A DNA stretch of 6,435 bases from a virus (taxonomy: Duplodnaviria; Heunggongvirae; Uroviricota; Caudoviricetes): the IMG/VR virus record IMGVR_UViG_2778260995_000006; one strand, given 5' to 3'. Positions 2,306 to 6,435 of this stretch are shown here, one piece after another. Below the pieces are notes generated by a model that saw only the letters and a program-made list of their open reading frames with translations, was not told the DNA's origin and searched no databases. The position numbers and the translations under genes are program-made. How positions within the stretch are numbered: position 1 is the first letter of the stretch; each line of letters begins with the position of its first letter.

Positions 2306-2333
2306 AAATAAAAAAGGCGCCATTTCTGGCGCC
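2306..2333 (-). terminator. Intrinsic-terminator-like hairpin between J and stf: 7-bp GC-rich stem, 4-nt loop, then a U6 tract on the minus-strand transcript
   Basis: Plus strand 2316-2322 ggcgcca and 2327-2333 tggcgcc are perfect reverse complements around loop tttc (2323-2326). Plus-strand aaaaaa at 2310-2315 gives UUUUUU immediately 3' of the stem on the minus-strand RNA. It lies 20 bp downstream of the J stop (2353-2355) and just upstream of the stf Shine-Dalgarno. Confidence 0.55.
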
Positions 2334-2352
2334 CGTATTTGGGTTATAAAAC

Positions 2353-5300
2353 TCAACTGATACTGATACCGGCTGTTGATTTCTTCATCACGACAACAAG
2401 AAGGTCGCTGATACTGGTCGTTGGCGTCCAGTTATTAGCACCATATGAAGAAACATTGAAAGTCAGGGTGACATGACCGTGTCCGGCAGGCATATCAATG
2501 ACGGATGAAAATACCCTGCTGACATCCGTCGCGGGTTGCTGAAAGATTTCCTGTCCGTTCTTCAGCACCTGCAGCTTACAGGTTGAATACCAGTATGACT
2601 GTTGGTTATTGCTGTTGAAGTTTTCATGCTTACCACCGTGAAACAGAACGGGTGGGATTACTATCTGACGGTCAAAAGCCTGGTCATCGTACACAGTGAC
2701 CGTAATTGTACCGCTGGCATAACTGCCATTTCTCGGAAAGGCTTTTCCCACCGTTTTGACAATATCACCTTCAATCTGGTTGGCAGACAGTTTTCCCAGA
2801 ATCCGACAGTTCTGGTTAATCGTGACATTATTGAGCGTCCCGGAGTTCGCATTCACGTTACCGCTGATATCGGCATTTTTCGCCGTCAGCCGCCCGTCCG
2901 GTGTCAGGGAAAATACCGGCGGATTGCCGCCACTGGTAATGGTGGGAGCCGTCAGATACTTCAGGAACACTTCGTTCATGAATATCTGGTTACCCTGCGC
3001 CACAAACATCGGAGTTTCATTCCCGTTTGCCGGGTCAATAAACGCGATACGGTTAGCGGCAACCAGGAACTGGCTCAGTTTACCTTCCTCCGTATCCTCC
3101 ATACTAAGGCCAAGCCCCGCGACATAATGCCTGCCGTCTTCGGTCTGCTCAATTTTGACGCCCCACATGGCATTCCATTTATCGTTGGCGTCCTTCCACT
3201 CTTTCGAAAACTCCTCCAGTTTGCTGGCGTTATCCTCCGTCAGCTCGACTTTTTCCAGCAGCTCCTTGCCGAGATGGGATTCGGTTATCTGGCCTTTGAA
3301 AAAATCCAGGTAACCTTCCGCATCATCGCTCGCCCGACCGACAGCCTCCACGAATGTCGATTTGCCGACGGTGTTCACACTGCGAACGTAAAAATAATAA
3401 TCATGGCCCGGTTTGATATTGATACTGGCGGCTATCCAGTACAGCGCCGTGCCAAGATAACGCGCGCTGGTTTCAACCTGCCTGATATCCGCAATCCGAT
3501 TTTCCGAGAACCAGAACTCAAACTGTACCGTCGGATCATAAACCGCAAGATGCGGCGTGGCGGTTATCTGAAAATAGCCCGGCGTCAGCTCAATCCGCGA
3601 CGGCGCTGCCGGTGCGGCAATCAGGAACGATACCGATGCCGGATCGCCCTGCTGCCCCCACGCATTTACTGCCCGGACTGTCAGCCTGTAGTTCCCTGGC
3701 GCCAGTTGTGTGAAGCGGTATGTGGTTTCCGCCGTCCGGGCTGTGCTGACCACCCGCTCACTGCCGTCATCCGCTGCCACGGTCAGGCGAAGCATGAAAC
3801 TCACGCCCTTCACCACCTTCGGCGTGTCCCAGCGGGCCAGTACCTGATACTCCCCGCTGTCTGCAGTGACTTCGGCGGTCAGGTGCTGCACTGCTGGCGG
3901 CGTGACACCATTCACCGTGCCGCTCTGGTCACCGTCAAAGTGCGCCCCGTTATCCACGATGGCTTCTTTCTCCGGTACATGCTGCACGGCAGTGATGGCA
4001 TACGTACCGTCATCGTTCTCACGGATACTCACGCAGCGGAACAGGCGCTGGCGCAGCGTCGGCAGCTTCAGCCCCCACACGCTGTATTCAGCAACACCGT
4101 CAGGAACACGGCTCACTTTTACCTTCACGCCGTCGGTGACGGACTGAACCTCCACGCTGACCGGATTGCCACTTCCGTCAACCAGGCTTATCAGCGTGGT
4201 ACCGGAGGATGGCAGCGTGATTTCACGGTCGAGCGTCAGCGTCCGGGTCTGGCTGTTCACCGCCAGCACGCGCCCGCCGATGCTGATACCGGCATAGTCA
4301 TCATCACAGATTTCAATGACATCGCCCGGTACATGGCGAAGCCCTTCGGCCCCCACGCTGAAATCCACGGTCTGCGTTTCCAGCAGTTCCGTTTTAATCA
4401 GCCACAGCCCGGCGCGGTGTGCCTGCCCCCGGCTGGTACAGCCAAAGGCATCCATCTTCGTGACGTTACGACCGTAACGGGCAATGGCCTGCGTGTCCTC
4501 CACAAGCTCTGTCGCCGTCTCCCAGCCGTTATTCGGGTCAATCCAGTTCACCTCAACGGCATTATGGCGGTCCTTCAGGGCGCTGAAGCTGTAGCGGAAC
4601 GGCGCGCCATCATCCGGCATCACCACATTACTGCGGTTATAGGTCCACACCTTATCCGATGGCCGGTCCTGCACGAACGTCAGCGTCTGCCCGTTCCATA
4701 CCGGCATACAGCGCATCGCCGAGCAGAAATCGCTGAGCACATCCCACGCCTTGCGCTGTGTGGTCAGCCAGGCATTACAGGTGATGCGCGGCTCCGTGCT
4801 GCCAAAGCCGTCCGGCACCGACTGGTCGCAGTAGTGGCCGATAACATACAGCGCCCATTTATCCACATCTGCCGCACCAAGACGTTTCCCCATGCCGTAG
4901 CGCGGGTGGGTCAGCATATCCCACAGACACCAGGCCATGTTGTTGCTGTATGCCGGTTTAAACGTTCCGTCCCAGATACCGCTGTATTGCCGCGTCTGCG
5001 GGTTATAATTCGACGGCACCTGCAGAATACGCCCGCGCAGATGATAATTACGGCTCACCTGCTGGCTGCCGAACTGCTCCGAGTCCACCTGCACGCCGAC
5101 CAGTGCCGTGTTCGGGTAGCACTGTTTCACATCGATGATTTCGGTGTATGACGACCAGAGCGTTTTGTTCTGCAGCTGGTCTGTGGTGCTGTCCGGCGTC
5201 ATCCTGCGCATCCGGATATTAAACGGGCGCGGCGGCAGGTTATCCACCACCACTGAGGCCAGATACTGCGACGTGGTTTTGCCCTTAATGGTGATGTCTT

Positions 5301-5751
5301 TTTCTGTCACCCAGCCACCGTTACGTTGTATCTGAACCAGCAGGCGGACTTCCGACGGATTCCTGTCCCCCTTTGAGGTGGTTTCCACCAGTGCCTGCAC
5401 ACCGAAGGTAAAGCGCAGACGGTCGATGTTTGCAGACGTGATGGTCCGGGTAATCGGCGTGTCGTACTTCACTTCCGTACCCAGCACCGTCTCGGAGCCG
5501 GAGGATTCAAATCCCTCCGGCGGTGTCTGCTCCTGCTCACCTGCCCGGAAAACCACCGTGACACCGGAGATATTGGTATTCCCCTCACTGTCCAGCACTG
5601 GCGTACTGTTCAGCAGCACACTTTTTAATCCGTCCACCGGACCTTCAATCGGCCCTTCGCTGATGGCGTCTATCACGCTCAGCATCTGCGTGGACTTCAG
5701 GTTGTCCTTCGCTTCGCGCGGGGTATGCCCCTTACTGCTGCCTTTACCCAT
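2353..5751 (-). CDS. J: Tail tip / host-specificity protein J (central tail fibre), complete, 1132 aa
   Basis: Supplied ORF of 1132 aa starting [54 protein letters not shown]..., which I recognise as near-identical to lambda gpJ over most of its length and of the same length (from memory). ATG at 5749-5751 is the first start after an in-frame stop at 5755-5757; GGAG and GAGGA Shine-Dalgarno motifs lie upstream on the minus strand. The last ~158 aa (about 2353-2830) appear divergent from lambda J. Confidence 0.95.
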
Positions 5752-5811: not shown

Positions 5812-6435
5812 TCAACGACCAATCACCACAACCTGACCACCGTCCCCCTCGTCTGCCGTGCTGATCTCCTGAGAAACCACCCGCGACCCCACGCGCATTT
5901 CACCGTACAGAACAGGCAGAACATTGCCCTGGGCAACCATGTTATCCAGTGAGGAGAAATAGGTGTTCTGCTTACCGTTATCCGTTGTCTGTGTACGGGG
6001 AGTTCTGGCTTTCGGTGCCAGCATCTGCGCCACACCACCAAGTACCATACTGGCACCGAGAGAAAACAGAATGCCGGTCATACCACCGGCCCCAATGGCT
6101 GTCCCCCATGCTGCAAGGGTGGCTCCGGCGGTAAAGAATGATCCGGCAATGGCGGCTGCCCCCAGGACAATCTGGAATACGCCACCTGACTTGGCCCCGG
6201 CGGCTCTGGGAACGATATGAATCACAGCGCCGTCAGGCAGAGCCTCATGTAACTGCGCCGTTAATCCGGACGTGCTGACATCCTGCCCGGCAATACGTAC
6301 CTGATACCAGCCGTCGCTCAGTTTCTGACGAAACGAAGGGAGCTGTGTGGCCAGCGCCCGGATGGCTTCAGCCCCCGTTTTCACACGAAGGTCGATGCGG
6401 CGGCCAAATCGTTGTAAATCCCCGTAAAGGCAGAT
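5812..6435 (-). CDS. I: Tail assembly protein I, partial: N-terminal residues beyond the window's right edge, stop at 5812-5814
   Basis: The supplied ORF 5812..6384 (VKTGAEAIRALATQLPSFRQKLSDGWYQVRIAGQDV...GGQVVVIGR) begins at an internal GTG. Hand translation of 6385-6435 on the minus strand continues in frame without stops as ICLYGDLQRFGRRIDLR, matching my recollection of the lambda gpI N-terminal region. A Gly/Ala-rich hydrophobic stretch (GAAAIAGSFFTAGATLAAWGTAIGAGGMTGILFSLGASMVLGGVAQ) is present. Gene order I then J on the same strand matches lambda. Confidence 0.9.
   Translation of the reverse strand: MCLYGDLQRFGRRIDLRVKTGAEAIRALATQLPSFRQKLSDGWYQVRIAGQDVSTSGLTAQLHEALPDGAVIHIVPRAAGAKSGGVFQIVLGAAAIAGSFFTAGATLAAWGTAIGAGGMTGILFSLGASMVLGGVAQMLAPKARTPRTQTTDNGKQNTYFSSLDNMVAQGNVLPVLYGEMRVGSRVVSQEISTADEGDGGQVVVIGR

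Follow-up and report, generated by a model that had tools for sequence, protein, structure and literature searches.

A phage-21-type receptor-binding domain on a lambda-like J protein: a probable recombination cassette with LamB as its most likely receptor

Background

In phage lambda, LamB is contacted by four bottom loops, L1-L4, of the tip attachment protein gpJ (Ge & Wang 2024). The window analysed here, a stretch of 6,435 nucleotides from a virus of the Caudoviricetes (IMG/VR record IMGVR_UViG_2778260995_000006), encodes a J protein that follows lambda gpJ over most of its length and departs from it at the C-terminus. An initial annotation read this departure as implying a receptor other than that of lambda. 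Where did this C-terminus come from, and does its divergence tell which receptor is used?

Results and discussion

J was recognised as a lambda-type tip attachment protein of an E. coli prophage by its full domain architecture and genomic position. Six Pfam domains all exceeded their cut-offs and were arranged as in lambda (PF24801, PF13550, PF24421, PF24489, PF09327 and PF12421; in order FNIII-A_GpJ, Phage-tail_3, Ig_J, Ig_J_second, Phage_Tail_Tip and Ig_GpJ_C), and an exact-sequence look-up retrieved an identical RefSeq protein, WP_096953684.1. The gene order I, J, stf (Table 1) was syntenic with those of lambda, phage 21 (phi21) and phage 4A7. As in the latter two, stf came directly 3' of J with no lom in between, and the phage 21 annotation has a terminator at the site equivalent to the hairpin found here.

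Table 1. Features of the window, with coordinates counted from its first nucleotide.
Feature	Coordinates	Strand	Remarks
Side tail fibre gene stf, 5' 764 codons	1..2294	minus	Open frame continuing past window edge; phage_tail_N, E=3e-66
Intrinsic-terminator-like hairpin	2315..2334	minus	GGGCGCC-AGAAA-TGGCGCCT, then T run; directly past J stop
Gene J (central tail fibre / tip attachment protein)	2353..5751	minus	ORF; 1132 codons and a stop
3' part of J of phage-21 type, not lambda type	2353..2818	minus	End of central straight fibre and whole receptor-binding domain (RBD), residues ~978-1132
Ig-like beta-sandwich RBD proper	2380..2763	minus	Residues 997-1124; AF2 model, Pfam, Foldseek
Codon H1038	2638..2640	minus	R in phi21, A8, 4A7, Stx-phage 1717 and lambda
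Codon I1032	2656-2658	minus	V in phi21; I in A8, 4A7 and 2G7b
Codon I997 (ATT)	2761..2763	minus	Equivalent to phi21 I1025; ancestral state, not the OmpC-enabling T
Conserved central-straight-fibre coding block	2818..3012	minus	J nt ~2740-2934; likely crossover zone upstream of cassette
Lambda/2G7b/4A7-type, not phage-21-type, J segment	3012..3340	minus	Residues ~805-913; breakpoints versus phi21 at 3340 and 3012
Tail assembly gene I, 3' part	5812..6435	minus	Start beyond window end; Pfam Lambda_tail_I, lambda synteny

Alignment with lambda gpJ (NC_001416, 15505-18903) bore out the initial description of a lambda-like body with a divergent end. Identity reached 96.3% over residues 1-974 (938/974) and fell to 45% over residues 975-1132 (74 of 163 aligned columns). 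Both proteins are 1132 aa long, as had been proposed, because three loops carry indels that compensate each other (-4, +5 and -1 residues). Of the two anchor motifs put forward, FDRQIV does occur in both proteins, whereas VIDMPAG reads IVDMPAG in lambda, leaving only DMPAG in common. A recombination junction had been placed near position 2830, within about 12 nt of the sharp breakpoint that a maximum chi-square scan of the DNA located at J nt 2934 (window 2818). Nucleotide differences from lambda amounted to 5.3% upstream of this point and 40.8% downstream, and the chi-square was 544, where 200 permutations gave 19 at most; likewise, the lambda BLAST alignment ended at 2819.

The AT-richness suggested as a further mark of this junction was only partly confirmed. 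The GC content of 2353-2830 was indeed lower than that of the remaining J (0.462 versus 0.579), but the main fall starts well before: GC was already down to 0.525 from position ~3550, some 700 nt upstream of the junction. Lambda J displayed a comparable earlier fall (0.526) and a value of 0.542 in its last 478 nt. The additional drop specific to the cassette was about 6-8 points, equal to phage 21 (0.467). Base composition is a weak marker of the junction.

The divergent end is predicted to adopt the beta-sandwich fold of solved gpJ RBDs. An AF2 model, built from an alignment without the lambda sequence, displayed eight to nine strands with pLDDT values of 84-98 over residues ~997-1124, and Pfam Ig_GpJ_C matched residues 1010-1132 (E=4e-37). 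The best Foldseek matches were PDB entries 9wca (E=3e-26), 9wcb (E=9e-23, TMt 0.77), 8xck and 8xcj (both E~1e-21); a literature search for a published description of 9wca/9wcb gave nothing usable. When loops were assigned to the distal face from beta-sandwich topology rather than from coordinates, four alternate loops were identical to lambda in 9 of 35 columns and contained 7 gap columns, versus 10 of 13 for the three opposite loops and 42 of 93 for the strands. The divergence from lambda is thus concentrated in putative distal loops, which fits a receptor-facing surface.

A very close relative of this RBD was found in phage 21 (GenBank OL657228, CPT_21_21). Against residues 1003-1160 of phi21 J, 156 of 158 amino acids were identical (98.7%) without any indel, and the C-terminus can be assigned on this sequence identity, above 95% and indel-free, to a phage-21-type allele. 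At the DNA level, 461 of 477 nt were identical; the 16 differences, 14 of them silent, fell in 14 codons, 12 of which were silent. This near absence of replacements indicates purifying selection and points to a conserved function. The two replacements, I1032 and H1038, correspond to V1060I and R1066H in phi21 numbering. H1038 is the sole non-conservative RBD difference from phi21 and was absent from the other RBD sequences inspected.

Yet the gene is not simply phage 21 J. Over residues ~805-913, identity was 88-97% with lambda and 12-57% with phi21. At about these residues phage 21 J (1160 aa) diverges and is longer by 28 aa, a phi21-specific segment that is lacking here. Taken with the protein length of 1132 aa, the lambda-type character of these residues makes the gene a lambda/21 mosaic. 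Between this segment and the RBD lies a block common to lambda-, 21-, 2G7b- and 4A7-type J genes at ~83-99% nucleotide identity (sliding identities), and the breakpoint against 2G7b was at 2767. On the other side, the phi21-like tract runs beyond the J stop codon to ~2236, with 99% identity to phi21 over 2335-2236. These sequence comparisons support a swapped cassette, namely a different RBD allele on a lambda-like body, joined by recombination near 2818. The cassette would have been gained by homologous recombination, with the upstream crossover in the conserved straight-fibre block (~3012-2818) and a phi21-like tract that crosses the J terminator and reaches ~20 codons into stf, without lom.

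The allele is a very common one. DNA searches at 95% identity or more retrieved the RBD from ~1,082 records in a set of 5,426 complete E. coli genomes, as well as from ~24 phage records; prevalence was taken from these searches, the protein homologue search having returned short fragments only. It is a RefSeq-annotated variant of a textbook host-range protein and belongs to ordinary, already catalogued variation.

What receptor such an RBD would bind is best judged from phage 21. The phi21 ancestor fails to lyse delta-lamB cells, its native receptor being LamB (Borin et al. bioRxiv 10.1101/2023.04.13.536812; Gerbino et al. 2024 PMC11336670), a use that was measured on E. coli K-12, while natural hosts carry other LamB and OmpC variants. 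The view that a divergent C-terminus implies a receptor other than LamB is accordingly not upheld, the RBD being 98.7% identical to that of a native LamB user. Our main reading, to which we give a probability of about 0.7, is that a phi21 RBD allele was gained as a recombination cassette on a lambda-like J and that LamB is its most likely receptor, since phage 21 uses LamB natively with an essentially identical RBD. By analogy with phi21, the allele is probably one or a few mutations short of also using OmpC or OmpF.

The RBD is predicted to cap the trimeric central tail fibre as an Ig-like beta-sandwich. If it works as described for lambda gpJ (Ge & Wang 2024), the distal loops of three RBDs would enter a trimeric porin at its extracellular mouth, and this contact may then spread the bottoms of the RBDs, so that the fibre is rearranged and the tail tip opened for DNA ejection.

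Recognition of OmpC, instead of or besides LamB, was considered since A8 gpJ713, the closest relative with a solved structure, is bound to OmpC of E. coli EDL933 (9wcb). Over the RBD, A8 showed 81.6% identity and no indels, its putative distal loops 1046-1050 and 1105-1116 being the same as here, and A8 chimeras deliver DNA via OmpC into delta-lamB cells (Brodel et al. 2024). That an RBD 82% identical to this one binds OmpC indicates that receptor choice is labile within the subfamily. Phi21 itself acquired OmpC use with one mutation, I1025T (Gerbino et al. 2024 PMC11336670), and the present RBD carries the non-conservative R to H change at 1038. Against this, 28 of the 29 RBD positions differing from A8 have the phi21 residue, and the differing putative distal loops 1004-1013 and 1075-1078 are phi21-like. 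At the positions separating A8 from LamB-using phi21, the RBD is thus not of A8 type. Moreover, the known OmpC-enabling site, I997, is in its ancestral state and ancestral phi21 makes no use of OmpC. Recognition of OmpC in the manner of A8 therefore appears unlikely.

A more specific form of the argument concerns the two replacements. As a single phi21 substitution can alter receptor range, they do count against LamB as the receptor, and H1038 is located at a beta-bulge preceding the 1046-1050 loop. Lambda host-range mutations reportedly adjoin the equivalent of H1038, T1040M being two residues from R1042. Positions 1060 and 1066 were sought among the phi21 J mutations for OmpC or OmpF use, and I1025T was the only one named in the literature found; a similar search for receptor data on mEp460-type phages gave nothing usable. 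Judged from the sequence, it is quite improbable that H1038 and I1032 broaden this phi21-type RBD to LamB plus OmpC; if they did, nature would here offer a parallel to the receptor innovations evolved from phi21 in the laboratory.

A receptor native to neither phi21 nor A8 (OmpF, FhuA, FadL, BamA or another outer-membrane protein) might be envisaged, as gpJ RBD alleles form many discrete types (tiers of 89, 82, 65, 45 and 43% identity) with receptors determined for a minority, and OmpF is within reach of phi21 derivatives after several mutations. The near-identity to the RBD of a LamB user makes this highly improbable. OmpF use in phi21 required at least four mutations of the receptor-binding protein, none of which is documented in this RBD, and FhuA-dependent lambdoid phages have, to our knowledge, tip proteins unrelated to J.

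Finally, divergence in place by a diversity-generating retroelement or by strong positive selection, rather than cassette exchange, would match the concentration of lambda differences in surface loops but is hardly credible, since many phages and prophages that are unrelated and differ in their J bodies carry the RBD sequence at 97-100% nucleotide identity, identity steps abruptly at both ends of the flanking blocks, nearly every difference from phi21 is synonymous and indels set the RBD apart from lambda. In line with the initial annotation, no reverse transcriptase was present among the ORFs or Pfam matches of the 6.4 kb window and no template/variable repeat pair was detected in it; no repeat longer than 25 nt involved 2353-2830. 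A retroelement or hypermutation origin was rejected on these grounds.

The preferred reading, a phi21-type cassette most likely directed to LamB, carries a caution for host-range prediction from genomes. Lambda and phi21 RBDs are 45% identical and differ by indels in presumed contact loops, yet both phages use LamB, whereas phi21-type (LamB) and A8-type (OmpC) RBDs are 82% identical and have different receptors. These comparisons imply that divergence of the gpJ C-terminus reveals cassette exchange, not the receptor used; RBD divergence alone is no receptor predictor.

Comparison with known systems

Among the closest counterparts are two mosaics of the same build, with a J of 1132 aa and no lom. 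Phage 4A7 (NC_049946) combines the same lambda-type body with a 21-type RBD, which is 99% identical to the present one and has R instead of H at residue 1038. The prophage J of E. coli WP8-S18-ESBL-07 (NZ_AP022261, WP_001598873.1) has a 100% identical RBD, and this prophage is 100% identical at the nucleotide level over window ~3335-2036. Both differ from the window by patchy nucleotide differences of 2-10% along gene I and the 5' two-thirds of J. Phage 21 resembles the window in the RBD, the post-J terminator and the immediate succession of J and stf without lom; it differs by the longer J described above.

The lambda gpJ RBD (PDB 8xcj/8xck; Ge & Wang 2024) has the same fold, the same order of FNIII, helical shaft, straight fibre and Ig-like RBD, and shares motifs FDRQ, NG and DMPAG; LamB and the triggering mechanism are probably common to both proteins. 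It differs by its 45% RBD identity, the three loop indels and putative receptor-facing loops that are 26% identical. Phage 434 J (OL657226), the classical OmpC-using h434 allele, has the gpJ architecture and straight-fibre block of the window. Its RBD is 43% identical and represents a separate allele type, and it was discarded as cassette donor.

A8 gpJ (PDB 9wca/9wcb; Brodel et al. 2024) is an engineered fusion of a lambda N-terminus to the C-terminus of a natural E. coli phage gpJ. Like the window J, it has a lambda body with a foreign RBD of the same subfamily and length and is the best structural match; it differs at 29 of 158 RBD residues, including loops 1004-1013 and 1075-1078, and binds OmpC. 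The natural mosaic of lambda body and phage 21 RBD described here has the very design of the gpJ chimeras engineered for DNA delivery.

Divergence and identity of the J C-terminus

The C-terminus of J, the lambda gpJ-like tip attachment protein, is clearly divergent from lambda (NC_001416). Residues 1-974 were 96.3% identical to lambda gpJ (938/974), whereas the last 158 residues (975-1132), which include the receptor-binding domain (RBD), shared only 74 of 163 alignment columns (45%). For the aligned DNA sequences, a maximum chi-square scan placed the change-point at J nt 2934, i.e. window 2818 (chi2 = 544, permutation maximum 19, n=200), with 5.3% differences from lambda before it and 40.8% after it; likewise, the lambda BLAST alignment stopped at 2819. 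The initial annotation was thus correct in coordinates, peptide and approximate length (about 158 aa). The equal length of both proteins, which it also reported, is real but coincidental, since loop indels compensate each other. Among its anchor motifs, FDRQIV is common to both proteins, while only DMPAG is common within VIDMPAG. The divergent region is indeed AT-richer (GC 0.462 versus 0.579 in the remainder of J). Yet, GC was already ~0.525 some 700 nt upstream of the junction and lambda J showed the same fall, so that the GC profile does not place the junction; the extra drop specific to the cassette was ~6-8 points and matched the phage 21 value (0.467).

This segment is not novel and corresponds to the classical, already known phage-21 allele. 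About 24 sequenced phage records carry it at 96-98% nucleotide identity, including phage 21 (phi21, OL657228), mEp460_4F5, 4A7 (NC_049946), 1W/3W, ev017 and several 'Lambda_xx' faecal isolates. The last 158 residues were 100% identical to those of the prophage of E. coli WP8-S18-ESBL-07 (WP8, NZ_AP022261), 99% to 4A7 and identical at 156 of 158 positions to phi21. A search of 5,426 complete E. coli genomes recovered the 478-nt segment at >=95% identity in ~1,082 records (about a fifth of the genomes) and at 100% in at least nine. Relative to the window allele, gpJ RBDs formed discrete identity tiers: 89% (Stx phages such as 1717 and BP-4795), 82% (the allele of engineered 'A8' gpJ, common in Stx1a phages), 65% (2G7b, VT1-Sakai), 45% (lambda) and 43% (phage 434). 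Over the last 477 nt, 16 nucleotide differences from phi21 affected 14 codons, 12 of them silently, a pattern that points to conserved function. The two replacements were V->I1032 and R->H1038; position 1038 is R in phi21, 4A7, A8, the Stx type and lambda, and S in 2G7b.

Gene layout and mosaic structure

Gene order, J architecture and an exact RefSeq match established the window as part of an E. coli lambdoid prophage. J displayed the complete lambda gpJ set of Pfam domains, the last being Ig_GpJ_C ('C-terminal receptor binding domain', residues 1010-1132), and its 1132 residues are exactly those of WP_096953684.1, 'phage attachment tail tip protein J [Escherichia coli]'. Gene lom was absent between J and stf, as in phage 21, 4A7 and WP8, in contrast to lambda, 434, 2G7b and Stx phage 1717, where it occupies this position. 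The best full-window phage match was 2G7b, its alignment being split in two because of this ~680-bp insertion/deletion (lom).

Features of the window, with putative elements indicated as such
Feature	Position	Strand
Tail assembly gene I, 3' part	6435-5812	minus
Mosaic patch in gene I (100 nt)	5936-6035	
Gene J, 1132 aa	5751-2353	minus
Antisense ORF within J, 849 aa	2602-5151	plus
Block identical to WP8	~3335 to ~2036	
Candidate crossover zone (central straight fibre)	~3012-2818	
Divergent segment of J	2353-2830	minus
J-stf intergenic region	2295-2352	
Terminator-like hairpin	2334-2315	minus
Side tail fibre gene stf, first 764 codons	2294-1	minus
Repeat segment of stf (duplicated copies 1326-1514 and 1515-1703)	1326-1760	minus
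Spurious ORF	1169-1855	minus
Spurious ORF	1384-1932	plus

J is not simply phi21 J, which is 1160 aa long and strongly different at ~residues 805-913, where window J is of the lambda/2G7b/4A7 type; breakpoints versus phi21 were located at 3340 and 3012. Since the block coding for the central straight fibre was 83-99% identical across all allele types, it appears as the obvious zone for homologous crossover. The phi21-like tract (96-99%) continued past the J stop codon and terminator to ~2236, and stf beyond was 2G7b-like (94-98%). WP8 was 100% identical over a ~1.3-kb block covering the distal J fibre, RBD, terminator and stf start, but only 91-98% identical farther upstream, save two 100-nt blocks at 100%, which suggests a very recent lateral exchange of this RBD-containing block. 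The lambda-body/21-RBD/no-lom arrangement was also encountered in 4A7. The recombinational junction proposed initially is therefore supported by the breakpoints, the conserved block and the WP8 and 4A7 comparisons, as is cassette exchange as the origin of the J C-terminus. The absence of a diversity-generating retroelement (DGR) also held: within the window, neither a repeat >25 nt pairing with the divergent segment nor a reverse transcriptase ORF was found.

Other observations concerned the surroundings. In the gene I patch, identity was 98-99% with lambda and phi21, against only 85-86% with 2G7b and 4A7, otherwise the closest relatives there; it is another short mosaic patch. The antisense ORF, wholly inside J, GC-rich and devoid of independent support, can almost certainly be dismissed as a shadow ORF without coding function. 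The stf repeat segment, which codes for an Ala/Lys/Glu-rich stretch of the fibre shaft, contained a 189-bp tandem duplication (copies 81% identical) in which periodicities of 21 and 42 bp were nested, and had very strong AT skew (down to -0.68, plus strand); it accounts for the spurious alternative-frame ORFs listed, among others. In the WP8 prophage, a gene for a group II intron reverse transcriptase/maturase (ltrA; not a DGR enzyme) and an IS3 fragment adjoin the tape-measure gene on its upstream side (positions 1-1674 of the NZ_AP022261 prophage sequence), in a part to which the window does not extend.

Predicted structure of the RBD

An AlphaFold2 model of residues 918-1132 (38 homologues in the alignment) displayed a confident beta-sandwich at residues ~997-1124 (pLDDT 84-98). 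The straight-fibre part came out poorly, which is expected when a single chain of a trimeric prism is modelled. The best Foldseek matches were all gpJ fibre structures: 9wca ('Closed state of A8 gpJ 713 central tail fiber'), 9wcb ('Open state of A8 gpJ 713 central tail fiber with OmpC G17 from E. coli EDL933') and 8xck and 8xcj (lambda central tail fibre, closed and LamB-bound). A PDB sequence search was concordant (9wca, E=7.5e-118; 8xcj, E=6.7e-68). The A8 entries, alone and with OmpC, were released on 2026-01-28, and our literature search found no paper describing them.

Loops of the model alternated between the two sandwich ends. At one end, loops 1004-1013, 1046-1050, 1075-1078 and 1105-1116 shared 9 of 35 columns with lambda (7 gap columns), versus 10 of 13 for the three opposite loops (DDxxFD, NG, PAGxG) and 42 of 93 for the beta-strands. 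In lambda gpJ, four 'bottom' loops, L1-L4, insert into LamB (Ge & Wang). Judging from topology rather than coordinates, the four variable loops are the putative L1-L4 equivalents; this would place the anchor motifs in fibre-proximal loops and core strands, which may explain their conservation.

Receptor and mechanism

LamB, also the lambda receptor, is the predicted primary receptor despite the 55% divergence (probability about 0.7). Phage 21 natively uses LamB, its ancestor failing to lyse delta-lamB lawns, and came to use OmpC, then OmpF, only through mutations arising in the course of coevolution (Borin et al., bioRxiv 10.1101/2023.04.13.536812; Gerbino et al. 2024, PMC11336670); the phage of that work is the OL657228 record compared here. 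A single substitution, I1025T, which immediately precedes the RBD, enabled OmpC use (Gerbino et al. 2024, PMC11336670), and the corresponding I997 is unchanged in window J. Together with the mostly silent differences from phi21, these points make LamB the best prediction and argue against the initial proposal of a receptor other than lambda's.

OmpC, alone or additional, is an unlikely candidate, although A8 gpJ, a chimera of the lambda gpJ N-terminus and a natural E. coli phage gpJ C-terminus, used OmpC for DNA delivery into delta-lamB cells (Brodel et al. 2024, PMC11338833) and was solved in complex with it (9wcb). The A8 RBD is 81.6% identical to that of the window, without indels and with two of the four putative distal loops identical, and the non-conservative H1038 occurred in none of the other alleles inspected. 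Yet, at 28 of the 29 positions differing from A8, the window displayed the phi21 residue. Any receptor other than LamB and OmpC is highly improbable.

The steps known from lambda gpJ (Ge & Wang) would apply: distal loops of the trimeric RBD would dock into the extracellular mouth of a trimeric porin, the RBD bottoms would spread while the tops close, the straight fibre would gain new hydrogen bonds, and the signal would travel on until the tail tip opens and DNA is released. No sign of departure from this mechanism was seen in the window.

The feature is already known, as a RefSeq-annotated protein with a classical, widespread allele and solved related structures. As an RBD 81.6% identical uses OmpC, receptor choice is clearly labile within the A8/phi21-type subfamily. 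More generally, gpJ RBD similarity does not track the receptor: RBDs 45% identical both use LamB, whereas RBDs 82% identical use LamB in one case and OmpC in the other.
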